Notes: generated from the sequence alone by a model not told the origin. 58,652 bases of DNA, filler included, from Sphacelaria rigidula (GCA_964200075.2; 10 parts of 10 records of this genome joined end to end with filler, not necessarily neighbours in it); one strand, 5' to 3'. Positions 8,326-45,775 are shown, numbered from the whole stretch's first letter. A program made the numbers and translations.

Positions 8326-8514
8326 GTTACCCAACTCTTACAAATAGCTCAGAGGATGAAACGATCGAGGGTATGTTCCAAGATCGTACAACAGACGGTG
8401 GAGCTGAAGCGAAAAGTGCACCCATTCAGCTGTATGCAACACAATATGTGGCCAATACCTACTCACCTCGTCGCAGGGCGCTGTGTTCTGGGCGCACACG
8501 ACTAGACGGGGGGG

Positions 8515-8577
8515 GTACTCATTTGTTGCTTGCCTTAGTCATTTGACCATTGACCACGCATCCCTTTCGAGACGGAG
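8515..8577 (-). mobile_element. 5'-truncated C-tract LINE-like family A copy with 17-bp TSD
   Basis: gtactcatttgttgcttgccttag...cgagacggag flanked by direct repeat cacgactagacgggggg at 8497-8513 and 8578-8594. Confidence 0.85.
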
Positions 8578-9360
8578 CACGACTAGACGGGGGGCAGAAA
8601 AGGAGCAACATCCGGCACATCGACGACCAGCGACGTACGTCGTTTCCGGATAGCCACCCAGACAAATATCGAATAAAGTTGGAGATGCTCTGTTACACTC
8701 GATCCGAGAGCCCCATCGCGGGCCAGCCCTGAGAATAAGGACATATATCCTCGTCCTTCAGAATTATAGAATGAGAAATGACTGGCATTCTCTGGGGATC
8801 GGTTTCGTGTGCCTGGACAAAACCTAGGCCGAACATAATCCTCCCTGTAGCGTGAAAAAACCGTAGACTTCTCAGAGTTCCGTGCACGTCTATACACATC
8901 ATCATTATATTAGTGAAGAAACCTTACAGATGAACCGTAAATATCCAAATACGACGGGCACCATCAATGCTGTGCTTGACCGTGAACCAGTGAAAGTCGA
9001 CATGCGAATATACAGGATGTTTTCGACACACAAGCAGCCGTCACGGCATGACGATCGCCGTATTCAGTAAACATGGCACAACTAGAAATAGCGTCCATCG
9101 CCAAGCCCTGTTGGTGTACCGCAGCGACCTGGAGAGCTAACATAAAATGACAGTCACTGGTACATGGACATCAGGCCCCTCTCTACGAATCCGGAACCAA
9201 GTCAACCTCGACCCCATGCGCAGAAGAACACAATGAAGAGCCAGCTACGCGCGCTCATTTATCACAGCATCGCACCATTTTGCTCACAGTGCCGACAAAA
9301 CAAAACTCAGAGTTTTTCTAGCCCTCCTGCCGCACGAATCCCTTCCCAGTAGATTCAAGA

Positions 9361-11652
9361 TTAGACCAAGGGCGGAGAGGAATGGGATGGTGCCACCTCC
9401 AGCTTAACATTCCGTTTTCCTTCGTCAACCACTGTACCAGTCTCGACCACTGAGGATCTCGATACAGTCGAGGCTACTGTACGACGCCGCTTGGGCCCTC
9501 GTTGATTGGTGGAACAGCGGCAGTCGCTCGCGGATGAAACAGACCGCTCGCTGCTCCTTCGTCCCCCACTGCGCAGACGAGTACGAGGAGAGACAACCAG
9601 CTCTAGCTTCATGCCTGCTTCTTTTGTGGAAATATTTTCACTCTCCGCGGTCGCTTTTCCTGGGATTACCGGAAGCACCGAAGAACGGTGACTACAATTC
9701 TCGCGTACTTCGAGACGAGGACGAACACCACCGCTTGCATCGATACCAATACCATTACATTCTTCGAGGGTTGATTCTCGTCCGTGGATAGCGCCCCCAC
9801 CTCTACTCTCGCCTAGGTCATGATCTAGGGGGGACGCTTCATGGCCGAATGCAGACATGTTAGGCATGGCACCCATTTCGACCGCATGCTCGCGGCAGGA
9901 ATTCATCTTGCTTGTCCCTTCCAGATCGCGCATGATGTGATTCAGGGGGTCCTTCTGGTCACACTTCTTGCTGATGACATTCACCATGCCCGCGCCAGCA
10001 TGTTGAGCGCAGAACTCTCGATGCCTGCTGCCTACCGCGCCGTATGACGGTCGTTTGGAGCAGCCCTCGTGGCCGCATCTCTTGTTCACGACATTCACCA
10101 TGCCCGCGCCAACATGTTGAGCGCAGAACTCCGCCCGCCTGCTGCCTACCGCACCGTGTGACGGCACCTTGGAGCAGCCCTCCTGGCCGCATCTCCTTCT
10201 GCTCAGGACATACACCATGCCCGTGCCAGCATGTTGAGCGCAGAACTCCGCCCGCCTGCTGCCTACCGCACCGTATGACGGCAGCTTGGAGCAGTCCTCC
10301 ACGTCACACCTCTTGCTCACGACATACACCATGCCCGCGCCAGCATGTTGAGCGCAGAATTCCCGATGCCTGCTGCCTATCGCACCGTATGACGGCTGTT
10401 TGGAGCAGCCCTCGTGGCCGCACCTCGTTCTGCTCAGGACATACACCATGCTCGCGCCAGCATGCTGAGCGCAGAACTCCGCCTGCCCGCTGCCTACCGC
10501 ACCGTATGACGGTACCTTCGAGCAGCCCTCCTGGCCACACCTCCTCCTGCTCAGGACATTCACCATGCCCGCGTCAGCATGTTGAGCGCAGAACTCCGCC
10601 CGCCTGCTGCCTACAGCACCGTATGACGGCTGTTTGGAGCAGCCCTCCTGGCCACACCTCCTCCTGCTCAGGACATACACCTTGCCCGCGCCAGCATGTT
10701 GAGCGCAGACCTCAGCCTGCCTGCTGCCTATCGCACCGTATGACGGCTGTTTGGAGCAGCCCTCCTGACCGCACCTCCTCCTGCTCAGGACATTCACCAT
10801 GCCCGTGCCAGCATGTTTAGCACAGAACTCCCGATGCCTGCTGCCTACCGTACCGTATGACGGCTGTTTGGAGCAGCCCTCCTGGCCGCATCTCGTTCGG
10901 CTCATGACGTTCACCATGCCCATGCCAGCATGTTTAGCACAGAACTCGGCCTGCCTGCTGCCTACCGCACCGAATGACGGTACCTTGGAGCAGCCCTCCT
11001 GACCGCACCTCCTCCTGCTCAGGGCATTCACCATGCCCGTGCCAGCATGTTGAGCGCAGAACTCGGCCTGCCTGCTGCCTATCGCACCGTATGACGGCCG
11101 TTTGGAGCAGCCCTCCTGGCCGCATCTCGTTCGGCTCATGACGTTCACCATGCCCATGCCAGCATGTTTAGCACAGAACTCCCGATGCCTACTGCCTACC
11201 GCACCGAATGACGGCACCTTGGAGCAGCCCTCCTGACCGCACCTCCTCCTGCTCAGGACATTCACCATGCCCGCGCCAGCATGTTGAGCGCAGAACTCGG
11301 CGTGCCTGCTGCCTATCGCACCGTATGACGGTCGTTTGGAGCAGCCCTCCTGGCCGCACATCTTGTTCACGACATTCACCATGCCCGCGCCAGCATGTTG
11401 AGCGCAGAATTCCCGATGCCTGCTGCCTATCGCACCGTATGACGGTCGTTTGGAGCAGCCGTCCCGGCCGCACCTCCTCTTGTTCACGACATTTACCTTG
11501 CCCGCGCCAGCATGTTGAGCGCAGAACTCGGCCTGCCTGCTGCCTATCGCACCGTATGACGGCTGTTTGGAGCAGCCCTCCTGACCGCACCTCCTCCTGC
11601 TCAAGACATCCACCATGCCCGTGCCAGCATGTTGAGCGCCGAACTCTGCCTG
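9361..11652 (-). CDS. EsV-1-7 cysteine-rich repeat protein (5'-partial; 14 complete C-X4-C-X16-C-X2-H repeats, one degenerate repeat, low-complexity C-terminus)
   Basis: Uninterrupted ORF open to the contig end. 38-39 aa repeats such as CGQEGCSKQPSYGAVGSRQAEFCAQHAGAGMVNVLSRRR have the EsV-1-7 spacing known from brown algae (Ectocarpus IMM family). C-terminal PKRRR NLS-like motif. Confidence 0.93.
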   Translation of the reverse strand, partial: QAEFGAQHAGTGMVDVLSRRRCGQEGCSKQPSYGAIGSRQAEFCAQHAGAGKVNVVNKRRCGRDGCSKRPSYGAIGSRHREFCAQHAGAGMVNVVNKMCGQEGCSKRPSYGAIGSRHAEFCAQHAGAGMVNVLSRRRCGQEGCSKVPSFGAVGSRHREFCAKHAGMGMVNVMSRTRCGQEGCSKRPSYGAIGSRQAEFCAQHAGTGMVNALSRRRCGQEGCSKVPSFGAVGSRQAEFCAKHAGMGMVNVMSRTRCGQEGCSKQPSYGTVGSRHREFCAKHAGTGMVNVLSRRRCGQEGCSKQPSYGAIGSRQAEVCAQHAGAGKVYVLSRRRCGQEGCSKQPSYGAVGSRRAEFCAQHADAGMVNVLSRRRCGQEGCSKVPSYGAVGSGQAEFCAQHAGASMVYVLSRTRCGHEGCSKQPSYGAIGSRHREFCAQHAGAGMVYVVSKRCDVEDCSKLPSYGAVGSRRAEFCAQHAGTGMVYVLSRRRCGQEGCSKVPSHGAVGSRRAEFCAQHVGAGMVNVVNKRCGHEGCSKRPSYGAVGSRHREFCAQHAGAGMVNVISKKCDQKDPLNHIMRDLEGTSKMNSCREHAVEMGAMPNMSAFGHEASPLDHDLGESRGGGAIHGRESTLEECNGIGIDASGGVRPRLEVRENCSHRSSVLPVIPGKATAESENISTKEAGMKLELVVSPRTRLRSGGRRSSERSVSSASDCRCSTNQRGPKRRRTVASTVSRSSVVETGTVVDEGKRNVKLEVAPSHSSPPLV

Positions 11653-11752
11653 NNNNNNNNNNNNNNNNNNNNNNNNNNNNNNNNNNNNNNNNNNNNTTAA
11701 TTAATTAANNNNNNNNNNNNNNNNNNNNNNNNNNNNNNNNNNNNNNNNNNNN
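11653..11752. other. Artificial contig spacer
   Basis: Same 100-bp spacer. Confidence 0.97.
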
Positions 11753-11870
11753 GAGTCATTGCTCGTGGTAAAAAAAAGTACTGACTCGAGCACACGAGTC
11801 ATGCTCGTTGTGTTTTGGGAAAACACTCATGAGTGCACTCGTCCAAACGAGTAATGACTCGTCCGACCTG
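11753..11870. repeat. Probable end of a non-autonomous DNA transposon with clustered CGAGT/ACTCG motifs
   Basis: Many gagt/actcg motifs in both orientations, ending in gtccgacctg. Confidence 0.4.
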
Positions 11871-12407
11871 TGCAATATTTTTCAACTTAAACGCCAAGAG
11901 TGAGAAAACAATAATCGCACATTAAATTCAGTACGGCGGTTCCCGGGGTGTCTTCATGCCCTCTATTGAACTATTATCATTGTGCTAACGTGCTCAAATT
12001 GAAGTGCATGTGGAAGCACGTGCTCGTAAATTCCTGTTATAACTCGGGATTTACAAATTGCGGATGTTTTCTTTTCAAGGTGAGCCTCGAAAACGTCTAT
12101 AAGCGAGCATCGAAGTACTTTCGAGGTAAAATGCAGACGCATTCCGTGATGTGTGGCCTCGCTTCCTAAAACAAAGCTTATCAATCTGTGAAATTCCATG
12201 TTTATTCCGAAGAGTTTCGGACTCTGTTTATTCCCGTGTAAAAAGGCCATTCATATTTCTCAGAATAACCCATAACCCGTTGGCACGATTTTTTTTCTCA
12301 ATTTGCGGATGGATTTTCTTCGAGAATAAGCGAGGTCACACATCACCGCCGGAGAGTGCATTTGCTTTGTCCTCAAAATTAGTTCGATTCTCATTAAGGT
12401 TACCAAG

Positions 12408-12663
12408 GAGTGTGCTACGGTAGAGGTGCACAAATATTTTCTGACGTTAGAATTGTTAGGAGCCCTTTATCTCATGCAAAACACGACCTATGAAGATATG
12501 TGAAAGTACGCCAGGATTACTACCCCAATGTGCTGGGGAAATCCCGAATGAATTTGCGAACGAGGATGCCCTGACCCATATTTTTGCGCATCTAGAATCG
12601 TTAGGAGCCCCTGAACTAGACAAAAATTTGCGAAAAAAGTGCACCCCTACCGTAGCATTGCTC
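12408..12663. mobile_element. MITE family D
   Basis: gagtgtgctacggtagaggtgcac...gtgcacccctaccgtagcattgctc, flanked by caag on both sides. Confidence 0.85.
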
Positions 12664-13062
12664 CAAGGTTCATCCTCTAAAAAAACATCCCCAATCTGTG
12701 AAATCCCGTGTTATATGCTCCTGACTCGGCTCGAAATAATGCTCCCAGTGGTTCTGGTGACGCTGATTTTTCCGAACCTGCTTTCGGCAATGCTCGTTTT
12801 TCTTGGGTATAAATTTTTACTTCACTTCTGTTTACTCCACTTAGCGGGAAGAATGGGTAAGGCCCCAATGATTGCTCGGTTTCATCAAACTCGGACACGT
12901 CTACGAGTATTTCTTCTGGGCTGGGAGGTCTTGCTATCAATAGGCCAACCTTGATGGGGAATGAAGCCAATTTTTCTTGCCTCCGGCGGCGCCTCGCGCC
13001 GAGTCCCCTCGCCACGGCGGGGGGGGGGGGGTGTTTGGGGCTCGCACAGCGAGCGGACTCGG

Positions 13063-13613
13063 CTTCCCCAGAATAAATCGAAACTGATCGATATCAAACG
13101 CGGACAAGTTCACACCCTGGACAATATATGGTTCATAGTTGCAATAGCCTTCCCCAGAATAAATCGAAAATGATCGATACCAAACGCAGACAAGTTCACA
13201 CCCTGGACAAAATATGGTTCATAGTTGCAATAGACAAAAATATACTGTGTAAAGTATAAGCCTATTGCACCTACCGCCGGTCGACAATAGTTACAAAAGG
13301 CCAATCTTCATGCAGTACATTTTTTTGTTTATTGCATCTTCTGACCATATATATATATATATATATGTTGTCCAAGGTGTGGAAAATTTTGACGTCGTAT
13401 CTATGTGATGGCTGGTTTGATATCCAACACTACAGTACAAAAAATAAATTATTAGATGAAAATTGGGGAAATATGCACACCCTGGACAAAAGATTCTGTT
13501 GTAAAAAAATGTACTGCGTACAGTATGTTATCTTTTGTCGATTGCGATAGGCGCAAAAGTCGATACTGTACGCAGTACATTTTTTTATTGTGTATTCTGT
13601 TGTCCAGGGTGTG
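13063..13613. repeat. Composite repeat: 2 x 86-bp tandem duplication followed by inverted-repeat modules (cacaccctggacaa...ttgtccagggtgtg); palindromic unit at 13476-13613
   Basis: Direct repeat starting at 13063 and 13149; inverted arms aaaatgtactgcgtacagtat / atactgtacgcagtacatttt; related sequence at ~32595-32720. Confidence 0.75.
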
Positions 13614-16600: not shown

Positions 16601-16724
16601 GTAAAGTCCGGATAAATTTTACGGTTTGTTCAGCCCAAGTACGGATTTTTACTGCTCCAGCCCAATACGGGTTTTTCACAGTCCAGGCAGCGCCCAGGCA
16701 TATGTTACACGTATTTGTGGAGGG

Positions 16725-16750
16725 CGTACTCATTTGTTGCTCGCCTTAGT
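16725..16750 (-). mobile_element. Extremely 5'-truncated family A copy (~26 bp) with 11-bp TSD
   Basis: cgtactcatttgttgctcgccttagt between cgtatttgtgg repeats at 16710-16720 and 16751-16761; the second runs into a G tract. Confidence 0.75.
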
Positions 16751-16926
16751 CGTATTTGTGGGGGGGGGGCGCGCGCAAAATGTTCTCGCAGCCGTTTCCG
16801 AACCAACTGCGGGATTCTCTGGACTAGGGGTGGAACATGTGTCAGTTTAGGCACCTCTCCCGTCCCCCCCCCCCTTCACCTCATTTCTTGGTATTGTAAG
16901 AACGTGATACATAGTAGAGGGTTGCG

Positions 16927-17103
16927 GAAAACGCTCTTTTGTCATTTCAGAGCGCAAATATCTCAGGATCAGAATGCAGAATAAATAAAGAACGTCATCG
17001 AAAAAAGCTTGAGGGGGTTCCACATTTGACGGAGGGGAAAAAAATTTCGTTTCACTCTGATCCTGAGATATTTGCACTCTGAAATGACAAGAGAGCGTTT
17101 TTC
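16927..17103. repeat. Inverted repeat, ~50-bp arms, ~76-bp spacer (MITE-like)
   Basis: aaaacgctctttttgtcatttcagagcgcaaatatctcaggatcaga versus tctgatcctgagatatttgcactctgaaatgacaagagagcgtttt. Confidence 0.85.
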
Positions 17104-17527: not shown

Positions 17528-17627
17528 NNNNNNNNNNNNNNNNNNNNNNNNNNNNNNNNNNNNNNNNNNNNTTAATTAATTAANNNNNNNNNNNNNNNNN
17601 NNNNNNNNNNNNNNNNNNNNNNNNNNN
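17528..17627. other. Artificial contig spacer
   Basis: Same 100-bp spacer. Confidence 0.97.
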
Positions 17628-19714
17628 AGGTCAGGGAAAGCACGGCTTTTGAGTTGAACCTCATTTTTTTTTTCAACCCCATTTTCGAAAATCGGCTGTT
17701 AATCGCTTGAGAATCTAGCATCATCGATGGTATTACACCAGCATGCGCCAACTTTTTCATGTGCCAGAACATCGACGTCGGGAAAGATTTCATCGTCTCT
17801 TCTTACCTGTCGCCAACGCGAAGATCGATTTTCTCCCTGCCTCTCGTTTTGGACAGGACGCGCCTCTGCGCGCTGATAAACATGTCGTTGAAAAATAGGG
17901 CAATGTTCCCGTCACCGCTACTACTGTACTCCGTCGCAAACATGCCAGCAAGGGCGGTGCTGCGGCAATAACAGATAGATCCAATTTGAACTTAGGGGGT
18001 GTTATTCATCGTTGATTTTGGCCGACCTCCCCCAACCGGGTGCCCGAGCAGAAGGGCCTGCCACACGCCAGTTGAGGGAGGTGTATGAGAAATCAAACAC
18101 TTGTAGAGACCTTTTTGACATGTGGAGTGGAAAAAGATACCTATGGTGGTCATCTAACTGTTGCTAGCGTGGCGCATAGGCAATCTGCAGCACACGCTGT
18201 TCGCGTGGACAGCTCGGTACAGTACGAGTAGCTTCCCATGAGAAATAATTATTCCGATGTCAGGAGGTCATGGATTATCACAACTTGGGAGGAGAGATGA
18301 GAGTGCTCTACGATCAACCGCATGCCGTTGCATTCGAGACCCACGCCATCAACCGCCGACAGCAAGGGTCTTGTGGCTTTCACGCGACGCTGTCGGCAGT
18401 ACGGCAGGCAAACCGGATTATAGCTACCTTTTGTTGCTCTACCGCGTGTACTCCCGTCTGCTCAGAGGTGGTCACGGTAACAAACTACACCGAAGTCGCA
18501 ACATCTGTGAAAGCTAGAGAGTCTGATTTTTATTAACTTCATCCACACAATTCAAACGGCTCTCCAAACCTGAGGGAGGACGGCTTCCCTGTCCCCCAGC
18601 CAGGCATTGATGAACGAGGAAAGACTTTTTACAGGCGGATACAACAGATGTGGGGGCCCGGAGAGGTTACATTCCATCAAAATCCGTGTTTTCCAACTTG
18701 CAAAGCGTCCCATGCGCATCGTTTCCTAATAGGAATGGTAACTTGTCGATTTCTGTTTCGTTCTTCAAGGACTGCGTGATGCCGATCCCCGAAAAGTTTG
18801 GTGTTGCTGTTCAATGGTATATTTAGATGTCTACCTGGACCCGAAGCGGCCACCTTCCAAATTGGGGGGGGGGGGGGGGGGGGGGGGGTGTTAACCTCAC
18901 ACAATTATTTTGCAGAAAAAAAACCCNNNNNNNNNNTCTTTTCCTTTCCTCTTCTTTGTCGTTTCCTGCGTCTCGGGGGGGGGGGGGGGGGGGGGGGGGG
19001 CTAGGTTTTAACCTCCCAAAATTGTTTTTTCACCTAGAACCCCAATATTTCGGTTATCGAAATCCAAATTTGTATGGCGTGTGGTAGTTGTCAATAGCTA
19101 CCAGCGAGTGAAGAAATGGAAGCATACTTCGAAGAGTTGGTGTGGATATACGAAAAAAATTAGTTCTTCGGGTTCTCATCCCCGCTGATAAACTCATCCT
19201 CAATTTGTAAAACCCCGTGTTCTTTGATCACACATCCATGCACAGTACATAAAATATGCTGCTTGCTGCTGTGTTCGACACTGCGTACACTGCGTACCAA
19301 TCGCAGCGTGGCGCCTTGAGCGATACTACCTGCTCACTGCACAGCGGCAGGGTGCAGGGTGACAAAGCACCACATAACGTCACACCCTTAGCCTATCCAT
19401 GTCCTGTATTGATTTCGCATTGTTCTATGCAGTTCGCCACATCATGAACGCAGCCGCTTGTACCTGCGGCCAACGTGTACGCAGGATATCACCCCTCGCT
19501 ACGCGCTATATCGCTACGCCACATTTTGTAAAGCTGTCCGTGTTGCAGCTACAGCGTGCGTTTGCCCCAGGTGGCGCACGCAGGAGTGAAAGGCCGCCTC
19601 CGCCGCTGCCTGTATCTCGGGCGAAGCTGTATGGTAACAAAGCCGCTATGGCGCGAAAGCCGCCTGTAACATTCCACACCGTGAATATTTTGTAATACAT
19701 TTTACACTGTGCAA

Positions 19715-28134: not shown

Positions 28135-28391
28135 ACTTTTCACGACATGCCCATATTTATCTTGCACGGAGTGTAGCCGCAAGTCAATATTGTAACCTAC
28201 TGTGTTTACTGACTGTAGTCTTTTTCATCAGGTCGCATGAAGCACCTCATATTGGCGACATCGACTAAAACGAACCCAGACGTGGGAATTCCCAGCTGCT
28301 CGTTGTGCTCGGCTTTTCCCATTTCGATTTATGCGAAGATTTTGCCTTCCAAAACCATGCACTTTTGGGGGGGGGAGCTATCGTAGAAAGT
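28135..28391 (+). mobile_element. MITE family B, copy without a family A insertion
   Basis: Shares cgaaccca..cgtgggaattcccagctgctcgttgtgctcg...cacttttggggggggg(a)gctatcgtagaaa with 32904-33189. Confidence 0.7.
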
Positions 28392-29018
28392 CTCAAACAT
28401 CCACAATCAACGCACAAGGAACCGCAGCGGTGACCTTGCCGCCCTCACGAACCCCTGCTGTCCAAGCGGGAGCTCATGGCGTCGAGAGTTGGGGAAGGGA
28501 GGGGGACTTCGGCCAGCTTTGTTTGCGTTTTGAATCCGCGGGCATCAAAATGCTCAATACTTTACAGTCCCGCCCCGCAATCCTTGTGATCTCCAAACCC
28601 GGAGGCAACTGCATCACTTGAATTAAAGGAGCGCAGCCGTGCCACACAAAAAGTTGGATGCTGTGCCAAATTTCGGAATTTTTTCGCCGAAATTGCACCA
28701 GGATCTCCTTCACACAACGACGCACAACTACACTAAGGATGCCCTCGTATTTATTGTTTTCACGGAGTGATAGCATTTTCCTAGTTTTCGCAGAAACTTC
28801 GAATCGCTCCAACTTTCCGTTTTTCTCTTCTTGTCTTGGCATCCCCGGGAAGGTAGTGCGAAGTGATGATAAAAATGCTGTGTCAATATTTTAGCGCCCC
28901 ACGCTTCGGATTACCCACCGCCCGGCCCGGATACATTCGAGAATTGCCAATTCGGGGTATTCAAGAGAGGGTCTTGTGCAAAGGTAACCCCGAAATCGCA
29001 TCTACGCTATCGAATCAA

Positions 29019-29377: not shown

Positions 29378-29501
29378 AGTACCCCCCTCCCCCCCCTCCC
29401 GGAGGCGTTTCTATTAGGGAGCAGGAACGGTGCTCCGTCTCGAAAGGGATGCGTGGTCAATGGTCAAACGACTAAGGCAAGCCACAAATGAGTACGCCCC
29501 C
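29378..29501 (+). mobile_element. Family A copy (29401-29501) directly after the agtac-C-tract end of another element
   Basis: ggagcaggaacggtgctccgtctcgaaagggatgcgtggtcaatggtcaaacgactaaggcaagccacaaatgagtacgccccc. Confidence 0.85.
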
Positions 29502-32521: not shown

Positions 32522-32903
32522 CTGTGCCGTTTCGATCAAAACCGTTTTTGTGACACACACAAGAATAATGCAATGCTACGGAGGCCAGAATCTTCGACAC
32601 GTTCGACAAGAATATATGGTGCATAGTTGCAATTGACAAAAAAAGTGTACTGCTCGAAGTATAGGCCTATTACAACTTTTGATCATATACTGTTGAAAGT
32701 CTGGAATCTTGACGTGTATAGACCCCGGTGATACGATTAGTACAGATAAAATGAAAGAAGTCGGAAGATCACGGTCAATGCTTCCGGCAAGTGCTTTTGT
32801 GTTGTTTTGAGTTGGTCTTGCTTCATGGAAAAAAATATTATCTGATGACTTTTGTGTTCTTTGGACTCGAGGGGCGTGAGTAGGAAAATAAACTTTATTG
32901 TGA

Positions 32904-33189
32904 ACACTTTCTACGATATCACCCCCCAAACCAGCCCAAAACCGTCACGAAGAAAATGGACATGTAGCGCCTCATATGGGCGACATTGGCGAAACGAACC
33001 CAAGCGTGGGAACTCCCAGCTGCTCGTTGTGCTCGACTTTTGTCAATTCGATTCACGTGTAGATTTTGTCTCCCCAAACCAGCCACTTTTGGGGGGGCGT
33101 GCTCATTTGTTGCTTGCCTTAGGCGGTTTACCTTTGACCACGCATCCCTTTCGCCACTATAGGGGGGGGGGGGCTATCGTAGAAAATGT
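32904..33189 (+). mobile_element. MITE family B with a nested family A insertion
   Basis: TIRs acactttctacgata...tatcgtagaaaatgt with adjacent C/G tracts. Confidence 0.8.
33098..33152 (-). mobile_element. Family A copy nested in the G tract of MITE B
   Basis: Flanked by gccacttttggggggg and gccactataggggggg; the same site is empty in the copy at 28135-28391. Confidence 0.8.
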
Positions 33190-33665: not shown

Positions 33666-33748
33666 CTCCGTCTCGTGAGAGATGCGTGGCCGATGGTAAA
33701 ATGATCCAGGCAAGTAACACATCAGTAAGCCCCCCTCCCCCCCCCCCC
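33666..33748 (+). mobile_element. Diverged family A copy
   Basis: ctccgtctcg...gatgcgtggccgatggtaaaatga...aggcaagtaacacatcagtaag followed by a C tract. Confidence 0.7.
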
Positions 33749-34984
33749 TAACAACAACAGCAGATAAATTTTTACCCTGGATTATTTCTCAGCAGCACCT
33801 AATTTTCGTCGCTGGAAAAGCGAGGAGTTTGAGGAGCAAAAACAGATTTGACGAAAATCGACGCGGTGCGGGAGTAGTGCTGGCCCCACTCATGATACCA
33901 AAATCTCAGGCATCCACCTAGGGAGAGATGGATTTATCCCTGGATCCTGTTACAATGCGAACTCATCTCGAGGCAGGGGGGACGGGGGGGGTACTCGGCG
34001 GTGGGTCCATAGGGACGGGTTTATTTTCATAGTACGGACACTGATTTGAAGTACTTTAATATAAGACACAGTCGGACAGTAAGTGTAACTTATCCTACCC
34101 GGACGGTGTGTGAGTGTAGCTTCTCACTCGGTGAAAGGGTACGGAGTGTGCGGAGCCGCGACGTAGACTTGATAAGGACGGACTTTGCAAGCCGGTTTGG
34201 GTTGAGACACAGAGTGATGGAGTAGGGGATGCGCCCACGAGGAAGCATCCCGACACGGGAGAATGACGATCGCAGACTGGGGATTGGATGATGGCAGTCC
34301 CAGGGTGACAGACCCGGGGAGACGGTCCGGGTTGACTAGCCCGGGGTTATTAGTAAGCGGGTCGGGTCACACAGAGGTCATAATAACATCAATATAATTT
34401 TCTGACCAGTCCCTCTACGTTACATAATACGCATCATAGTACAAACTTGGTTTTAGTATAGGTTCCGTCACACATGGTTTTGCCGGTCTTCTGGTGCCCG
34501 CAGCCGCACTACAGGACCGTCCGGAGGCAGGATGATTTTCAAGACGACGGCAGTCTCACAAGCGGTGCTTTGTGTCTTGGTTTACGGGGTCGTGTACCCA
34601 ACGTTCGCTATGAGTGTCGCCGTGCCCGCGGTATGGTTGCGGTGGCCAGAGTTGGTGGTGGAGAGTCTCCATTTGCGCTCAAGTTGCTGCTGCATCTGCA
34701 CGGCCTTGGATACGGGGCACGATTTAAGATGACTTCGTCGTCGTCGTCGTGTGGTGTTTTCATGTTGCTCGGACGGAGCATAACCCGATAAGAAAACAGC
34801 ACACACATCAATGCTTCTGGCTCTCTCTTGTAGGCTGTCGTGCTGTTGTTCTGGATGACTCGCGTTGATCGATGCCGTACAGACATGCACGACAAGCACG
34901 GTGCCAACTGGCTGCCCAGCGCTGGCGAATCTTCTTGAGACATGGATGCAGTCGGTATCGCGACAGAAAGTTGTTGCGGTACTA

Positions 34985-35252: not shown

Positions 35253-35423
35253 GCGGCTCACCCTTCATGCGACTCGCCGAACACACCACGGCGCTTCGCG
35301 CTCGGTGGTTTGAGTGCGAGCCTGGTCCGGCGAAAATCCGGCGTGCCCCGTCCCGGCTTTGCAGGGATGCGAGGTCAATGGTCTCATGACTATGGCATTA
35401 ATGCATGGTCCTGAGTACACCCC
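35253..35423 (+). mobile_element. C-tract LINE-like sister family C, 3' end
   Basis: Encodes ...PALQGCEVNGLMT and ends in tgagtacacccc; homologous to 37115-37268. Confidence 0.7.
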
Positions 35424-35855
35424 AATGTACGCGGCGAAAACGTTGACACTGCGATTTCGGGTGGGGGACCTGAATCTGCCAGAAAGAAAATATTCACCAG
35501 TCGTCGAAAGGAGGAAGTAGTCCCTGTGGCAAAGAAATAGAGAGTACAACTCATATAATGGCAGCTGATTGATCGATTGATGATTATCTCACATTATTAG
35601 CTGATTGCAACAACCCAGTCCGTGGTCAGGAGCAGCAAAAAAAAACAGTAAAATCAAAGAAAAGATTCGGGAGCAACGGCTTCAGAAAGGAAAGAAGAAC
35701 GGAAGCAGTGATAACAACAAAACCAACACCACCGCCACCAACAACACTCACAAGCAACAAGAGCAAGAACAAACAAGAGCAATAACAACACAAGATGATT
35801 ATCTCGCATTACGTGGCTGATTGCAACACTCCAGCTCGTGCTCAGAAAAAAAAAG

Positions 35856-36156
35856 TGTGAACTATAGAAGCAAGAACGGAAAACGTGTTAGAGGGGGAAA
35901 TGCGGGACGTGACCGGAGGTGAAATGAAATAATTTTATGCATTAGACAATAATAGCGAAAAAACGATGGCTTCACTAGGAGATAAATATGGTTGCCACTG
36001 ACGGGGTTTTTGTGTAATGTATGTAAAAAAGGTAGTGAGCACCTAGATGTTGGAGGTGTCTCTATTAGGAGCAGGAACGGTGCTCCGTCTCGAAAGGGAT
36101 GCATGGTCAATGGTCGAACGACTAATGCAAGCAAGAAATGAGTACCCGCCCCCCCC
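35856..36156 (+). mobile_element. Longest family A copy (~300 bp), decayed ORF C-terminus
   Basis: With stops and frameshifts it reads CEL*KQER/VLEGEMR...ALDNNSEKTMASLGD...FLCNVCKK...VGGVSIRSRNGAPSRKGCMVNGRTTNASKK*, then GTAC and a C tract. Confidence 0.8.
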
Positions 36157-36262
36157 TTCCCTCCGCCTGTCTGGTATGCATGATCATGAGTACACCCTCC
36201 GGCCTCTCTGGTAGGATGAGACGAAAAATGAAAAATGCCAACTGGTCGTCACGAGAGACGAT

Positions 36263-36366
36263 TCAACCCCTTGACCGCCAGGGCGGTTCATCCGTTGAAA
36301 AAATCAGCACCATTCTCGCTCGAAAAATAACTGGGGCTCACTTGATCATTGGAGCACGAGGTTCAA
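36263..36366. mobile_element. Diverged mini-MITE family H
   Basis: tcaaccccttgaccgccaggg...tcatccgttgaa...tcgaaaaataa resembles 49765-49869. Confidence 0.45.
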
Positions 36367-37114
36367 CTCATCCGCTTGGTTCAGATACTTGCATGCGATT
36401 AGCCAAAGAAAGTGGGGCGACAACTTTTAGTACTGGCAGCATGCACGCGCGCAATAGCGAATTGTCACCATTCCAGTCCAGCTAGACACCAGGACCCTGC
36501 TGCCAATCCGAACGGCATTAATACGGCAGTCGACAACACAGAATGAAAACGAGGTTTTTTTTAGGGTTTCAACTTTCTTGTTGCCACTGTCTGCACGCTA
36601 GGGTTGGTTGTAGTAGTACAAAAAAAACTTCACTGTTGCTGCGCTGCCGCTCGTTCTTCGTCATGAGCCAGTCACTGAGATGCTGGGAAATTATGTTTCG
36701 AAGAGACCAATCACTACTGTAACGTATCAACCGACTGATACGAACGCGCCTCCATGTGACCAAATTACCCACCTCTGTAAGATCTCGCACGCGTGAATGT
36801 ACTTGTACACATTTCAGCACCCCGGGGACCCCGCATACAGCCACCGTACATCTTACCTCTACAGCCAGCGTATTACTCAAACTATGGATTATTCATAGCC
36901 GTCGTGTTGAGGCCCTCTTTTCGAAGAAGAACATGACATACCCCTCGACGACATACCGCGCCTCACCCCTCTCCTCCATCTAAATTAAATGGTGATACAG
37001 CAACGAGGTAGTGCTAACCGGTGGCTGTCTCTGGAAGTGGCGATGATACCAGAACATGATGTAACTTATGCAAGATAATCAGTACGCCTCTCGGGCCGAA
37101 CAATCTTTTCAGGG

Positions 37115-37268
37115 TGCAGATCACCCCTCATGCGACTCGCGAAACACACTACGGCGCTTTGCGCCTGGTCGGGCGAAAGCCCGGCGTTCTTCGTCCCGGC
37201 TTTGCAGGGATGCGAGGTCAGGGGTCCTATGACTACGGTATACAAGATCATGAGTACACCCCTCCTCC
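37115..37268 (+). mobile_element. C-tract LINE-like sister family C, 3' end
   Basis: tcatgcgactcgc...cgtcccggctttgcagggatgcgaggtca...gatcatgagtacacccctcc. Confidence 0.7.
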
Positions 37269-38782
37269 ATCGGTCTCTCGACCCCCTTATTGGGGGCGCC
37301 CTGCCCGCGCACTCCACTCATCAGTAAACAGTCCACCCGCAAGAGATGTGACTGTACGTAAGGCCAGACTATCCTGCACAACGGGACGTCGATAATCATA
37401 AATAAAAGGAACACCGAGTACTGCACGCAAAGCTGCGTACACCTTCCCCTGCACCCGCTGTCGTCGAGAAAATCAACCTCGATAAAACAGAGAAAAACAC
37501 GAAAACATAACAACACACATATTCCACGCACGGGTTTTCTCATTACAAACGTGGACCTCTGCGGGAGTTCTACGATACAAGGGTACACGAAAAAATTCAA
37601 GTAGATAAAAACAGCCCAAAAACATGTAAAAAGCCATCCAAGACCACCCACAGTCTCCCACTCAAAAACCCCACCCCGTGTCTTCATTTTTCTAAGTTGT
37701 ATTACTCCACACCAACCACCCTTCGGGGAAAATACACCAACACTGGCGGAAAAAAAAAAACCCGACCAAGCGCTCGTTCTATATTCCAGCTCTCTCTCCA
37801 CCATGCAGCAATCCACTTGCCCGAGAATAAAACATGCGGGCAACACCGCACGCCACAATTATCAATCAAATTTCCCAAAACATGAAGCAGTGAGGAGGAG
37901 GGGAAGAAAAAAAAAAAAACACGTAAGGATCCCACCAACAAACGCAGTCACGGCTACAAGCCACGACTCAAAACACTTCTCTTTTACCAACTGTATCTCC
38001 AGTGCCGCACCCTTGACTCGCTCGACGTAAACGAGACAAAAAAAGAAGCTATAATTAAACCACACGGTAGTTTCATCGAGTGGAGAATCATCACACAGGA
38101 CAACGAGGTGCATGCACGACAAACCCGCTCGCTGAATAAATTCCGCTTCCCCTCCCTTGACTCACTGACACACCTTGGAAGCCGTTGTCACCACCGTCAA
38201 CATCGGGATGGAAGAGCAATGTACTGTAACTCAAAAGTTCCTCCGACCTGCCCACCACCCTCCTCCGTTTGAAACAAGCACAAATGACGTCAGACACGTC
38301 TCTGGCAGCCTCGCGTTCACGCTCATCCAACCAGACATTGTGGACATCAAGCGAGAAACGGGCCAAACACAAACACACAACACACAACACGAGGAAGGAC
38401 AGTTTGGCTCCAATCCTCACGCCGTGCAAAACTTAGAGAAAATCCCACAGGATACATGATCAATAGTGCTGCTGCCGTCGGGACATGACGCTGCTCGTTT
38501 TCCTGAGCTCCTTTTCTGACGGGGAAAAGACACGCGGCAATCTACTCCCCGCGCCAACAGATATAGTGTCGCCATCCCCAAGGCCCAACAACGTCAAACC
38601 CACTCAACTCAACTCAACTCCGCTACAACCTCACGGCAACATAAAACGAGAACAAATATCCAAAAACCGAATCGCTGCCCCGTGCTCGACCTCGATTCAC
38701 GGGTGGGTAGGTAGGCGGAAGTTCGGTACTCGAGGATATCGAAGAGGGGCAAAATGGAATGGGGCGGGATCGCGAAACTACA

Positions 38783-38974
38783 CTACGTGAGCGCCAGCAC
38801 CGCGTTGACGACGTCGCCGTCGTTTTGCTTCAACGCAACAATCGCTTCGTCCGGACTGCAGCCCGCGTGCGACACGATGGTCAAGACATCGGTCGGGTCT
38901 AACCCGGCCCGCACCGATTTCGCCTCCACCGCCGCCGGATCGGGTCTTTGAGACAACTTCGCGCGGTTCGTCGC
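38783..38974 (-). CDS. NAC-alpha-like protein, last exon (UBA-like domain)
   Basis: LDPTDVLTIVSHAGCSPDEAIVALKQNDGDVVNAVLALT* has the NAC-alpha/HYPK UBA pattern; CAG acceptor at 38975-38977; phase 0. Confidence 0.85.
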   Translation of the reverse strand, partial: ATNRAKLSQRPDPAAVEAKSVRAGLDPTDVLTIVSHAGCSPDEAIVALKQNDGDVVNAVLALT

Positions 38975-40537: not shown

Positions 40538-40816
40538 CTGTTGAGGGGTGAGCGACGTCTGGTGCAGCGGCGGCCCGGCCCCCGTGATTGCTGCCGCTGC
40601 GTCCGCCGCAGCAGCTTCCGACGACGTCCTACTTCGCTCGTCGGCTGCGCTACTACTAAAGGTAGGACTTCGGGATGCCCTTCGGTGGTGACGATGCACC
40701 GAATCTCTACCGCGCCCGCGGTAATGGTTGTGGTGGCTGTAGTTGCTGTGGCCCGCTCCCATGCCAGAGGAAGGGCTCATCTCCGTCTCCGCCGTCCCGA
40801 ATACGACATACGTGTT
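40538..40816 (-). CDS. NAC-alpha-like protein, upstream exon (end of the NAC domain plus low-complexity linker)
   Basis: Begins NTYVVFGTAE, like the NAC-alpha motif DTY(I/V)(I/V)FGEAK; AAG acceptor and CAG|GT donor; 279 bp; splices in frame to 38974. Confidence 0.75.
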
Positions 40817-40960
40817 CTTTTGTTTATGTGTATTTCCCCCGCATTTTTTTCCAAATAAAACGACAATATGATGGAGAGTCAATCGACGTCACCCAAACAG
40901 TACAACAAGCAAGCGACAAGACATGGGAGGGGGGAGGTGGAAGGGGGGGGGGGGATGGAG

Positions 40961-40999
40961 GTACTCATTTGTTGCTTGTCTTGAGTCATTTGGCCAATG
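40961..40999 (-). mobile_element. Short family A copy between G tracts
   Basis: gtactcatttgttgcttgtcttgagtcatttggccaatg with G-rich runs on both sides. Confidence 0.75.
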
Positions 41000-41027
41000 C
41001 GGGGGGGAAGGTAGGGGGGGAGGGGGG

Positions 41028-41127
41028 NNNNNNNNNNNNNNNNNNNNNNNNNNNNNNNNNNNNNNNNNNNNTTAATTAATTAANNNNNNNNNNNNNNNNN
41101 NNNNNNNNNNNNNNNNNNNNNNNNNNN
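41028..41127. other. Artificial contig spacer
   Basis: Same 100-bp spacer. Confidence 0.97.
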
Positions 41128-41699
41128 TGACACATTCGAAAACACGTAACTTTGGGTCATTTAACGCTGCGTAAGATTTGATTTTTTGGGCATTCGTAGT
41201 GGAACACATGAGACTCCCGTGTCGATCAGATTTCCACCATGAGGGCTCTTGAAATTGTGGCAAAAAGTTGAGAAAAAAAAGGATCGCGAACGTCTATTCC
41301 ATCCCCTATCTCGAATAAAACGACCATTTTGATTTCTCCCATTATGAAAGCTTATGGCAAAATATTGGAAAACGCCCGCGAGACAAAAACTCGCTATTTT
41401 CATTCATTCACCGCCCAGGTCTTGATGGCGCGAACCACTGAAGCAACGAACGCATGGGGAACGGAAAGTCAAGGTACAAACGACGGTGCTTTGGCACGTT
41501 CCTCTCTTCAAAACACGTTGTCCTTTGTGGCCGAATTATTCACCAAGTGGAACCAAACGTGCATACACAATGATCACTAGTTACTTGACAACCCCGACTG
41601 TTCACGACGAGAAGCCATGAAAATTCAAAAACTGGGCGGGGAAGAAACTTGGCGAATGACGTGTTTCCGTTCACCTGCCCCCGAATGGAACCCCAAGCC

Positions 41700-41970
41700 G
41701 AAAATGAAATAAAAATGTTTGGTACATTAGATTATGGCGAAAAAACGATCGCTATGCTGGGAGAGAGACGGTGGTCACAAACGGCGAAACAGGAACAAGA
41801 CACAATATGTAAAGGGTTCATTTTTTAATACACGAGGAAAGCAATGAGCGACGAAGTGTCGGAGTTGTCTCTACTAGGAGTAGGAACGGTGCCCCGTCTC
41901 GGGGATGCGTGGTCAATGTTCAAATGACCAAGGCAAGCAATGAATGAGTGCGCTCCCCTCCCCCCCCCCC
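41700..41970 (+). mobile_element. Long intronic family A copy
   Basis: Encodes MFGTLDYGEKTIAMLGERRW, which aligns with ALDNNSEKTMASLGD of the 35856 copy; ends in aatgagtgcg plus a C tract. Confidence 0.75.
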
Positions 41971-41993
41971 TCAAAGGGAACCTCGAGCCAAAC

Positions 41994-42271
41994 CTGATGA
42001 ACGTATTGTAGTGCACGGACACGAAAAGCGCAGTGATAAACTGGCAGTCCATCCTGTCCGTCACCCCGCCGTGGCCCGGTATTATGGAATCGAAGTCCTT
42101 GATGCCGTAAGCCCTTTTGATGGCGCTAGCCCAGAACCCTCCGAACGGCGCTATTACCGATGTAAATGCGGCCATCGCTAGCGCATGCAGCTGTATCGGT
42201 GCCACGGTGAATGTTGCCGCTGGGGGCCGGACGAACAGGAACACTTCCATGAACGACCGTATACTCTCGGG
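41994..42271 (-). CDS. CDS1: Phosphatidate cytidylyltransferase (CDP-diacylglycerol synthase), exon with the catalytic signature
   Basis: APFGGFWASAIKRAYGIKDFDSIIPGHGGVTDRMDCQ is the CTP_transf_1 signature; TAG acceptor and AG|GT donor. Confidence 0.95.
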
Positions 42272-42887
42272 CTATATATATCGTGGAGGATGACGTGGCG
42301 TAGTAGGGGCAAATTCAGGGGACAGATGCGGGGGAATAGGAAAGAGAAGTGATGGTGTCAAGTGATGGCCGTCAGGTCGTGGCAGGGGATAACATGATCA
42401 GCGACAACTACGGAGAGAGAGGTGAGGTGACCTACCAACGACCATTCCGTTACTGGTCATTCGAATTTGACCCTGACATGTCGGCAACGCCAAAGCACTC
42501 AGTCCGCACAAAAAGGGGTTTTCGGTGTGTGCGCTCTTTGCATATATGTCCACGTGTGTTGCACTGTATTCGGCAAGTAAAAAGAAACACCTATCCAATA
42601 CCCACGTCTGACACACATGATACATCCGCCGTGCAGCCACCAAGAATGAGGCATGTCTTCGCCCCAACAATTCCATTTAGTAAGTATATTCAGTATATAT
42701 ATATACATATGTACACCTCATCTCGCGCTCCAGTGGTCCAACTGTTGGATCTGGAAACGATGAGGCTGGAGAAAATGATGGCTCGGATCCCGCCAGATGC
42801 TTCATTTTTTATTTTCATATTTTTCTAAAGTATCTGATTATTGATGTCGTTGGAAACGCGACGACGGCAGTGCCAAAGAGAGTTTAA

Positions 42888-43030
42888 CGAGTCGACGGGC
42901 GCGCGCAAGTGCTGGTCATGATCTAATCAGCGATACAAAAATGTAAGGAAGCGTGTCCCGGGGGGGAAGTGAGTTGATCACTTGACACGACGAAGTCGTC
43001 CGGGAGACGGGGGGGGCTTGAAAGGAAGTG
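42888..43030 (+). mobile_element. Diverged intronic SINE family F fragment
   Basis: gagtcgacg...agtgctggtcatgatctaatc...gttgatcacttgaca resembles the family F body. Confidence 0.45.
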
Positions 43031-43475
43031 CGCCTGCCAAGAGACGAGAAAAAAGACATCGAACCTCTCAAAGAGTATGCATCCATCCGCACATTGCAAC
43101 CGTTTGTTCGACAAAAAAAAGATAGGTCCAAGGTTTCCACGTACGATACCTGGTACACTTTGGGAGTATTTTTTTCGCCCAACATCATCCAGACCACCAC
43201 TACCGTTACGCGCTACATAGAGTGAGCCGTGCACTCATAAAACCAATATGGGGAAGGAAAAAGAATTGAAAAAAACGACAAAGCATGGATACTCAGGCAA
43301 GTGTGCTGTAGATTGCCCGGCGAACAGACCCATTGATGATAGGGGTGGGGTGTCCAACAAGAGATAAGAAAAACAGCGGACGGGGGGGGGGGGGGGCAGG
43401 GGACAAAAATGGAAAAACCAACTGCCACGGCGAAGCCCCCTCCTTCTTCCTTTTCCTCCCCCACCTTCTCCTCAC

Positions 43476-43649
43476 CATGGCAAACTCCGTCTCCGTGAAA
43501 ATCATGTTGGGTTTGCAGTGCATTGTCCGCGGCCAGAAAAACAGATCCTCCACCGGGCACGTGAACCACTCGTACTTCCCGAGGAATGCCGAAAAGTAAA
43601 ACGCGAAAATGCACGTCAAGAAAAACGCGCCGATGAACCCTTCCCACGT
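43476..43649 (-). CDS. CDS1: Phosphatidate cytidylyltransferase exon (TWEGFIGA...FTCP...ETEFAM)
   Basis: Completes the conserved SPNK|TWEG motif; 174 bp, phase 0/0; ATG|GTGAG donor. Confidence 0.92.
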
Positions 43650-43722
43650 CTTCATCAAGAGCACGCCATGTTCGCGGCCCGAGGCGGGAGAGAGGCGAGG
43701 GCGGCAGAGGAGGGGGGGGGGG

Positions 43723-43787
43723 GTACTCATTTGTTGCTTGCCTTAGACGTGTGATCATTGACCACGCATCCCTTTCGAGACGGAGCA
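43723..43787 (-). mobile_element. Intronic family A copy in a G tract
   Basis: Flanked by gcagaggaggggg and gcagggggaggggg (imperfect TSD). Confidence 0.85.
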
Positions 43788-44464
43788 GGGGGAGGGGGTT
43801 GGTCCAACGATAGATCATATACGTACACGAATGAGCCGATTTGGGGTTACCGCAATTCCGATCCCTTTGATAACATCCGCGATGAGAGGTCATTTCCCAA
43901 AACCAACAGTCTGCCAGCTGTCTGATCCCCAACGACGGACTCATTCCCTCAAGACCAGAGGCCTTTGTGTGTATGCTTTCACGATATCCACAGCACCAAA
44001 CTCTAGTGCTAGAAAACCGGGGACAGCGCCCACGGTAGCCATTTGTTCCACGTGAAGATTGGTGTTCTCATTTGGTATCAACGGTAAGGCACACAAAAAA
44101 AAAAGAAGACCAACACGGGTCGTCATCATCATGTCCACAACTAAATCGCAGAGGGACAAAAAAAAAGCGAAGTTTTTGTCGAGATCAAACTGCTACTAAA
44201 TACCAGACGAGGGAACAAATGGGGACAAACACACACGCGACCTGAAAAACAGAATGAGACGAAAAAGAAAAGAAGGGCAATATTTCTCCTATCTCAACAC
44301 AAACAGTAGTATATGACGTGCCCCGTGTCTGCAAAAACCCATGCAAAAAAAAAAATGTCCTCGATAATACCGCAACGTATCGTATCTCTTCATATCTCTC
44401 ATTAACATTACACACGACGTTATGTACATACTATTTCTCCCTCTCGAATTTTCGGATACTGTAC

Positions 44465-44525
44465 CTTATTTGGAGAGATCTTGAGGAACGGTTTCTTGAT
44501 GAGCTTCCGCCCCGCCGTTATGCCA
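44465..44525 (-). CDS. CDS1: Phosphatidate cytidylyltransferase exon (GITAGRKLIKKPFLKISPNK)
   Basis: 61 bp; CAG acceptor and AAG|GTAC donor; phases match both neighbours. Confidence 0.9.
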
Positions 44526-45099
44526 CTGCTCGAAGGAAGATGGCGCCGGCGCGTGCGCAAGAATCGGTTGTTCGTAGAAATGGGGGAGTGGGTCATCATC
44601 CGGAGTCGAGTTCGTGATCTTTCCATAGATCGCATACCGTAAAGTCACAGGCAGGACAACGCTGAGTACTACGGCAATAAACACAGCGGGGTCCTGCTCG
44701 GGAGCGATCTTTCCCTTTCTCAACGGACGCCCACTTGGGAGCGGTCGACATCGTCGCGCACAACTCCGACCTGCAAAAAGCCGCGCTTACGAGTAACTGC
44801 TCTTCATTGGGTTGCCGTGGTGGAGTCTCGTTTCAAGTTGTCATCAGTTCGGTGATACACACTACACCGCACTCAATGTCGGGGGCTTCCGCTCAATTTG
44901 TTACTGATGGTTCATTCGACAAGTCTGAAAAATTGTGTGAATTACTCAGGAAAAAACAGTCGCGGTTGTGCAGCTCATCGAGGCTCTAGCGGTAGTAGAG
45001 CTCCGTCTGCTCTTCCCTCACGCGTATCATGGGTTTTGCGGGCGTATGCATATGTGAGTGTGTGTGTTCGTTGGTCCTATTCTCTGTCCCTCTTCTCAC

Positions 45100-45245
45100 C
45101 AGAAGTATGCGGCGATGTCGTTGCAGATGACCAGACTCGCGGGGAAGAAGAACCAAAATATCCCGTTGAAAATGTTGTGGGCAACGAACTTGAGCTGCGC
45201 CACTATCATGCAAATCGTAACGATTGTCCAGGTCAGCTGACCAAC
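45100..45245 (-). CDS. CDS1: Phosphatidate cytidylyltransferase exon (VGQLTWT...NIFNGIFWFFFPASLVICNDIAAYF)
   Basis: Conserved ND..AY..G motif; 146 bp; CAG acceptor and TG|GTGAG donor; missed by the ORF track. Confidence 0.92.
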
Positions 45246-45440
45246 CTGCCGAGACAGAAACACAAGACAACCGTACGCGGAAAACGCAGCACCAACGCGA
45301 AATCAAATGACAGGTGAGGCGAGGGGGGCCAGCGAACGGTAGCAGATTACAGACTTTGCCTGTTATGGGCCTCAACCTAGCCTGTGTTCGCGGAGCTGAG
45401 ATCAAGATTTCATGATTTTTTACGGCATTTTCCCCACTAC

Positions 45441-45775
45441 TACACTTTTCACGATAGCCCCCCCCCCCCCGTAAAAAAAAAGTGCCTGGTTTGGGGACGC
45501 AAAATCATCCCGTGAATCGGAATCGAAAGAGTCGAGCACAACGAACAGCTAGGAATTCGCACGCTGGGGTTCGTTCTCGCCAATGTCGCCCATATGACGC
45601 GTTTCATGCAGCCCGAACCCAAACATCAGGCGCTGTATGACCATTTTTTTCGTGACACTTCTGGGCTGTTTTTTTTTTTTTGGGGGGGGGGCGTACTCAT
45701 TTGTTGCTTGCCTTAGCCATTTGACCATTGACCACGCATCCCTCTCGAGACGGGGGGGCTATCGTGGAAAGTGTA
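45441..45775 (-). mobile_element. MITE family B (TA-flanked, Tc1/mariner-like) with a nested family A insertion
   Basis: TA-cacttttcacgatagccccc...gggggctatcgtggaaagtg-TA; interior is the reverse complement of 32904-33189. Confidence 0.85.
45692..45751 (-). mobile_element. Family A copy nested in the G tract at the other end of MITE B
   Basis: G10-cgtactcatttgttgcttgcc...cgagac-G7. Confidence 0.85.

Follow-up and report, generated by a model that had tools for sequence, protein, structure and literature searches.

New copies of the mammalian L1, a long interspersed nuclear element (LINE), arise through target-primed reverse transcription (TPRT), in which the homopolymer tail of the RNA pairs with a homopolymer at the nick; target-site duplications (TSDs) start with the tail base, copies are truncated at the 5' end, junctions show microhomology, and short partners are mobilised in trans. 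LINEs that are specific for microsatellites or telomeres also exist in the literature. Here we describe a family of repeats with a comparable anatomy, which end next to C rather than A, in a 58,652-nt stretch of DNA from Sphacelaria rigidula (GCA_964200075.2; hereafter the window). With a probability of about 0.85, these repeats are 5'-truncated copies of an autonomous brown-algal LINE with an apurinic/apyrimidinic endonuclease (APE)-type nuclease, accompanied by a non-autonomous partner (N-type copies) that borrows its last ~50 nt.

The closest described systems come from the brown alga Ectocarpus. In supplementary file 1 of a 2025 catalogue, RTEX-1_Ec32 is noted as "single EN-RT ORF; (C)n 3'" (EN, endonuclease; RT, reverse transcriptase; ORF, open reading frame) and RTEX-2_Ec32 as "(C)n termini/TSD", and the TSD is given as "C-rich" for RTEX-1, RTEX-2, RTEX-N1 and RTEX-N2 (PMC12477816). 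RTEX-N1 and RTEX-N2 have their 3' 60-100 bp in common and "can be present in tandem", and the origin of their heads is unknown; the remaining Ectocarpus LINEs listed there are RTE with (CAA)n and CRE with (CA)n (PMC12477816). In the main text, RTEX-N1 is the most abundant family, the terms 'C-rich' and 'insertion preference' have no occurrence, and neither the C tail nor its target is discussed (PMC12477816). Likewise, the RTEX passages of two further papers do not mention tails (PMC11203168; PMC5753468). Literature searches returned no open paper treating a poly-C-tailed retrotransposon, and a literature search on G/C homopolymers in brown algae found nothing.

Compared by description, the window element agrees with RTEX-1 and RTEX-2 in having one EN-RT ORF, a (C)n 3' end and TSDs rich in C, and in being often truncated at the 5' end and arranged in tandem, and the N-type copies resemble RTEX-N1 and RTEX-N2 in being short and non-autonomous, with only a 3' end in common and a head of unknown origin; the difference lies in the host, which here is another brown alga. 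An earlier reading of the window from sequence alone (hereafter the sequence-only reading) had suggested that such a clade might be undescribed; this is not supported, since the list for Ectocarpus already includes RTE-X LINEs whose 3' end is (C)n and whose TSDs are C-rich (PMC12477816, in the parts covered). As far as those parts go, the C tail has been recorded in supplementary-table notes only and its mechanism is unstudied (PMC12477816). What is gained here is the extension of poly(C)-tailed LINEs, already catalogued in Ectocarpus, to another brown alga, together with a proposed mechanism.

A fixed 3' end and the reading frame behind it

The ten LINE-type copies are spread over five of the ten pieces that make up the window (5,776 bp each, one of 5,775 bp, separated by spacers of N44-TTAATTAATTAA-N44), and all of them end in ...AAATGAGTAC(G), that is, in GAGTAC with an optional G, next to a C-rich tract. 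The 3' end is fixed in 10/10 copies and their 5' ends differ, falling at 1957, ~1992, 1929, 1968, 1960, 1544, 1985, 1763, 1958 and 1962 on the sense strand of the longer relative L001, whose 3' end is at 2022. The 22-mer AAGGCAAGCAACAAATGAGTAC has nine matches in the window at up to 3 mismatches and none in 100 shuffles, and a tenth copy, older and more diverged, lies at 33666-33728. The sequence-only reading, which had counted ten copies with one fixed end abutting a C-rich tract and one variable end, is confirmed in these respects. It had also placed them on five independent contigs; five pieces are involved, which may or may not be separate contigs. As for the lengths of about 26-300 bp that it gave, their variability stands and the range becomes 28-479 nt, since the copy noted at 35856 begins at 35421 and is interrupted by 291 bp of inserted sequence.

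The longest window copy (35421..36145, + strand) corresponds to reference positions 1544-2022, in the C-terminal coding part, and its insert occupies 35565-35855. Next in length are a 256-nt fragment with 77% identity to L001 (41696..41951, +), downstream of the last coding exon of the CTP_transf_1 gene described below, and a 95-nt fragment (29401-29495, +). Five copies begin within 12 nt of each other (reference 1957-1968), so that half of the LINE-type copies stop 55-66 nt from the end: a 66-nt fragment with 100% identity to L001 (8515..8580, -), a 65-nt fragment in an intron of the CTP_transf_1 gene (43723..43787, -), a 61-nt fragment (45693..45753, -) and a 55-nt fragment (33099..33153, -), which interrupt, respectively, the C/G run in the left terminal inverted repeat (TIR) of one copy and the G run in the right TIR of another copy of a repeat resembling a miniature inverted-repeat transposable element (MITE), and the old, diverged copy (33666..33728, +), which has 81% identity to L001 and is followed by a C-rich tract at 33730-33748. 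The shortest are fragments of ~39 nt (40961..40999, -), between C/G-rich tracts and with its 5' flank cut by a piece end, and ~28 nt (16726..16753, -). No long terminal repeat or TIR was seen around the copies. Two further observations concern these sequences: the 291-bp insert in the long copy is bounded by ~65-nt direct repeats (GATGATTATCTC.CATTA...GCTGATTGCAACA), and at 33984-33991 (-) GAGTA is followed by C8, a 6-nt match to the element end beside a C run that may be an extreme truncation or a chance match.

The nature of the fixed end is given by longer relatives. Scanning a public metagenome collection with the 22-mer yielded three marine contigs (L001, L002 and L003), all of which end in GTACG and a C run; the same scan of a viral contig collection gave no matches. 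In L001 and L002, a frame of 671 aa, open at the end of the locus, extends into the motif and terminates in ...TKASNK, with its TGA 4 nt before the end. This stop lies inside AAATGAGTAC (...AAA TGA GTAC), and past it only GTAC(G) and the C run follow. Both frames contain RVT_1 (E=2.8e-33 and 3.1e-31). Among database proteins, P0001 (1,360 aa) is 90% identical to the L001 frame over 100% of its length and carries Exo_endo_phos at residues 170-392 (E=3.4e-12) followed by RVT_1 at 740-989, and P0002 (1,328 aa; 76% identity) carries Exo_endo_phos at 142-383 (E=8.1e-15) and an RT at 710-959. P0001 and P0002 have the same C-terminus as the L001 frame, and a single ORF is seen in each; the same C-terminal part, ending in ...NGQMTTASNK, also occurs in P0003, a chimeric gene model of Ectocarpus sp. 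Judged from these proteins, the LINE would carry a single EN-RT ORF of ~1,330-1,360 aa and almost no 3' untranslated region (UTR).

Because the RT ORF of the longer relatives reads into it, the fixed end is the 3' end. By blastn and tblastn, colinearity of the window copies with this ORF extends over its final 28-479 nt. The ten copies are therefore 5'-truncated ends of an autonomous LINE coding region and not a separate 300-bp element. The window itself matches P0001 only over residues 1194-1360 (tblastn), with nothing further upstream, and 240 of its 245 frames of at least 80 aa gave no RT or EN hit in Pfam, only CTP_transf_1 and EsV_1_7_cys, the five frames overlapping the EsV-1-7 gene having been excluded. 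Thus, the sequence-only reading was right to see a non-LTR retroelement with a fixed 3' end and no RT domain in the window, and a domain search like the one that it proposed, applied to longer relatives, returned both RVT_1 and an APE-type endonuclease.

The opposite polarity is also conceivable, with the fixed end as the RNA 5' end, the G run on the opposite strand stemming from cap-dependent extra nucleotides, and the variable end as the 3' end. On the opposite strand G does stand next to the fixed end, and extra G's occur at the 5' junctions of LINE-mediated retrocopies. However, the RT ORF reads toward the fixed end, its stop in L001 and L002 lying 4 nt short of that end, and the G/C run belongs to the TSD and pre-exists in empty sites (see below), which leaves this explanation with a negligible probability. 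The ORF orientation also rules out reading the fixed end as the 5' end of an RNA or as spliced-leader-like.

As for its affiliation, the LINE most likely belongs to the same lineage as Ectocarpus RTE-X (RTEX-1/RTEX-2), a label drawn from catalogue descriptions rather than from a phylogeny. Alternatively, it could be an APE-type, C-tailed LINE of another clade, e.g., L1/Tx1-like; the C tail would then have had more than one origin among brown algae. A CCHC-like motif (Cys-x-Cys-x8-His-x4-Cys, read by eye) near the C-terminus of P0001 and P0002 would fit such a placement, and the best solved-structure matches, L1 ORF2p (E=6.6e-21) and R2 (E=8.8e-20), do not discriminate. Nevertheless, only RTE-X LINEs are noted with (C)n ends and C-rich TSDs in the covered part of the Ectocarpus catalogue (PMC12477816), and the protein C-terminus is the same in the Ectocarpus sp. 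model, so that a non-RTE-X affiliation is improbable.

The N-type copies have a body unrelated to that of the LINE. The first (35258..35418, +), whose 5' part is cut by a piece start, ends in GAGTAC-A-CCCC; the second (37121..37258, +), with 73% identity to the first, ends in GAGTAC-A-CCCCTCCTCC; and a 25-nt N-type 3' end (36173..36197, +) closely follows the long LINE copy's C tail, either as an extreme truncation or as part of a duplication. The part common to N-type and LINE copies is the last ~50 nt only (GGGATGCGAGGTCAATGGTC…ATGAGTAC). The base between GTAC and the C run is G in 9/13 LINE copies (those of the window plus L001-L003) and A in 3/3 N-type copies; because this base tracks the subfamily, at least some of the C's would belong to the RNA template. 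For the N-type copies, whose 5' end is undefined here, the search for a small-RNA head was negative: Rfam gave no match in 36950-37300 even at E values as high as 1, and ARAGORN predicted no tRNA in the window. At the gathering threshold, Rfam gave no match in the whole window, hence no ribozyme or small RNA at the fixed end. Tandems occur as well: the long LINE copy (35421) directly adjoins an N-type copy's C tail, and the 95-nt fragment lies in the tail of another copy, upstream, that is cut off by the piece start and of which AGTAC and a C-rich tract remain at 29378-29400 (the whole array spanning 29378..29495, +). The three N-type sequences and this remnant are additional to the copies listed in the sequence-only reading.

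C-led duplications and pre-existing homopolymer runs

For the statistics of the C run, 13 copies were counted (ten LINE-type and three N-type), and a C-rich tract, not A, lies beyond the end in all 13. A run of at least 4 C starts 0-2 nt past the end in 8/13 copies, against a background of 1.3% of window positions, and the first 12 nt downstream are 68% C, compared with 24% in the window.

TSDs of ~7-17 bp that lead with the C run accompany 6/10 LINE copies, three of them clear. The copy at 8515 is flanked by a perfect 17-bp duplication, CACGACTAGACGGGGGG (8497-8513/8578-8594), with 7 C in the 3' run and 6 in the 5' copy. At 16726, the duplication is CCACAAATACG, a perfect 11 bp that is preceded by C runs (16710-16725/16751-16769) and extended imperfectly by the C run. 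The copy at 33099 has 15 bp with 2 mismatches (33082-33098/33154-33173), and that at 43723 an imperfect, C-rich duplication (43704/43785). At 45693, the duplication consists of the C run only, and at 41930 (the 256-nt fragment) there is a degenerate candidate. The old copy at 33666 has no clear TSD in its flanks, and two flanks (29474 and 40961) are cut by piece ends. Each of the five junctions with a defined TSD shows 1-3 nt of microhomology, as read by eye against L001 and L002. The four G/C-containing TSD pairs and the junction microhomology that had been noted from the sequence alone are thus recovered, and orientation, C-led TSDs and C-tract enrichment together support the sequence-only reading of TPRT from a C-ended 3' end.

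Filled and empty sites are available in a MITE-like repeat, with TIRs of ACACTTTCTACGATAG plus C6-13 plus AAA, that occurs at 28228-28400, 32900-33185 and 45478-45775. The first of these paralogues (28228..28400, +; the repeat at 28268) is uninterrupted and reads CACTTTTG-G9-AGCTATCG, which makes it an empty site for the insertion at 33099-33153: the copy at 32992 holds the 55-nt insertion within the same G run. The copy at 45478 holds a 61-nt insertion in the run at its other end. Therefore, the G/C run predates the insertion, and the repeat was hit twice independently, with different truncation points. Pre-existing runs are the targets, in agreement with the G/C-tract targeting put forward in the sequence-only reading.

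These sites also bear on the proposal that the element has no target preference and that it acquires the C run in the course of reverse transcription or later, by non-templated addition of C or a tailing enzyme, with C-rich TSDs as by-products. Reverse transcriptases can add non-templated nucleotides, and the 3' C run at times exceeds the 5' copy (at 45693, 43723 and 41930). In contrast, the C run and unique bases beside it are present in the 5' TSD copy as well (e.g., in the perfect 17-bp duplication at 8497/8578), uninterrupted MITE-like paralogues already hold the G/C run at the insertion point, and two independent insertions hit the runs of that repeat. The proposal of a C run without target preference is accordingly very unlikely, and insertion of the truncated LINE copies into existing G/C runs remains the preferred reading.

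G or C runs of at least 6 number 66 in the ~57.8 kb of window sequence; 18 of them lie within 25 nt of a copy end, and the others sit in other repeats or unique sequence. Insertion of this LINE may thus account for part of the G/C homopolymer load of brown algae. A separate observation concerns two very long runs, G25 (18864-18888) and G26 (18975-19000), which flank an N10 gap and are each followed by a similar ~25-nt sequence (TTAACCTC.CA.AATT.TTTT); they may mark a further family of repeats delimited by a long run of G/C.

Several points weigh against the reading of these repeats as tails of an autonomous, C-tailed RTE-X-like LINE that targets G/C runs. The window holds no full-length copy, RT or EN, and the link to an autonomous element runs through three metagenome contigs and database proteins; the RTE-X label, as said, comes from descriptions. 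Three of the ten LINE copies have no usable TSD, being old or cut by a piece end. C-run lengths differ in both directions between the two TSD copies (12 in 5' versus 7 in 3' at 33099; 7 in 5' versus 10 in 3' at 45693), and because of this, and because homopolymer instability confounds them, tail length and nick position cannot be read from the runs. Finally, the consensus RNA structure of the 3' end is weak (-6.4 kcal/mol), with no compensatory pairs.

A possible insertion cycle and the abundance of short copies

Taken together, the sites described above lead us to infer TPRT at G/C homopolymers. In the sequence of events that we envisage, the APE endonuclease would nick the G-run strand, at or within the run, and the 3'-OH of the G run would pair with the terminal C's of the RNA and prime cDNA synthesis, which would mostly abort early. 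A cut of the second strand ~7-17 bp away would then generate a TSD led by the C run, and the 5' junction would be sealed via 1-3 nt of microhomology. Every insertion would thereby restore a C run behind the element, so that read-through transcripts of the daughter copy could end in C's again and a poly(C) polymerase would be unnecessary. Resident tails could in turn serve as fresh targets, giving rise to tail-into-tail tandems.

The origin of the tail is the more delicate part of this scheme. There are hints that the target run of the parent serves, via read-through, as the template for the C tail, which would not be added in the manner of poly(A), because the runs at 8515 (7 versus 6 C) leave little or no extra tail; the argument is a weak one, because run lengths differ both ways elsewhere and homopolymers are unstable. 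If it holds, the description of this element in the sequence-only reading as L1-like logic with C/G in place of A/T is apt with regard to TPRT and not with regard to a tail of the post-transcriptional type, since the C tail would be copied from the target run.

L1 is nevertheless the functional analogue of the window element. The two systems share an APE endonuclease and an RT, with related RT regions (the ORF2p match given above). They differ in that C/G here takes the place of A/T, without the poly(A) tail and T-rich nick site that define L1, in that the 8515 runs give no sign of a post-transcriptional tail, and in that the window element has virtually no 3' UTR, its stop lying 4 nt from the end. 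LINEs tailed with simple repeats, such as Ectocarpus RTE with (CAA)n and CRE with (CA)n, offer another parallel, with a tail templated by the element or target, a match between tail and target and tail-into-tail tandems; here the repeat unit is the mononucleotide C. Being built on the other base pair, the element is a natural counterpart of L1 with its poly(A) tail and T-rich sites, and it allows tail-target pairing to be tested against endonuclease specificity in determining where LINEs land.

The clustering of 5' ends calls for a comment of its own, as it could mean that the ~55-75-nt copies are not random truncations but represent either a discrete, non-autonomous, tail-only mini-element or products of a programmed stop, whose own 5' end would lie near reference 1947-1968. 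Besides the five window copies that start within 12 nt, contigs of four public runs (X3-X6), aligned to the eighth piece of the window, bear on this possibility; these contigs break at repeats. Beyond the fixed end (place 43712), the unaligned parts share only a G run (+ strand), in 341 (X3), 155 (X4), 93 (X5) and 29 (X6) contigs. Beyond 43787, the 5' end of the 65-nt copy, 171 (X3), 171 (X4), 54 (X5) and 31 (X6) contigs continue as element; both observations, on other genomic copies, speak for the C-tailed LINE. For the mini-element, 5-11 nt past 43787 (43792, 43797 and 43798) 245 (X3), 196 (X4), 28 (X5) and 33 (X6) contigs become G runs. From these G-run contigs it follows that, in many other copies as well, the element is cut ~65-75 nt from its end, with a run on either side; a stretch capable of forming a hairpin, GGAGYAGGAACGGTGCTCC (by eye), lies just upstream. 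The starts vary by single nucleotides and the junctions show microhomology, however, as expected of aborted cDNA and end joining; copies of 28, 39, 95, 256 and 479 nt exist too, and no structure is statistically supported. A mini-element or programmed stop is thus a rather unlikely source of the short copies, and early abortion of LINE cDNA, which may have a hot spot in this region, is favored.

None of the runs listed is recorded as RNA; X6 behaves as RNA, to judge from the one spliced contig of the host gene (see below), and its element contigs enter G runs and varied flanks, which is uninformative on the transcript of the active element. Summed over repeat bins, contig depth exceeds that of single-copy bins by about four orders of magnitude, a figure that is not usable as a copy number.

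Extended to the genome scale, the scheme leads to a speculative proposal, which we hold to be less probable than its negation. RTE-X-like LINEs of brown algae may run a self-renewing homopolymer cycle, in which the 3'-OH of a G run primes on a C tail that was copied from the previous target. The endonuclease could have evolved for G runs or the structures that these form, and the cycle might be a main source as well as a main consumer of the frequent genomic G/C homopolymers, leaving a very large population of 55-75-nt tail-only copies.

Host gene and other features of the window

Two of the LINE tails lie within or beside introns of a gene for phosphatidate cytidylyltransferase (CTP_transf_1; 41993-45248, -), and a third is located downstream, past the final coding exon. 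The gene has exons at 41993-42271, 43476-43649 and 45100-45248, all three of which are joined in one spliced contig of 3,094 nt from run X6. Because of this spliced contig, the copy at 43723 can be placed in an intron of the host gene. In annotation, very short fragments (28-95 nt) flanked by C runs in the introns and UTRs of brown-algal genes are accordingly to be recognised as LINE tails.

The same gene informs on the host. An exon shows 84-85% identity to proteins of Hapterophycus, Laminaria, Ectocarpus and Ascophyllum, and lower identity to those of other stramenopiles; judged by this comparison, the host is therefore a brown alga that, at the phosphatidate cytidylyltransferase gene, is not identical to the species named.

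Two features stand apart from the LINE copies. A 763-aa open frame at 9364-11652 (-), which runs into a piece end, contains 14 EsV-1-7 cysteine-rich repeats with a period of 117 nt. Additionally, a 230-nt inverted repeat at 47644-48140 has arms that are 97% complementary and separated by a 37-nt spacer.

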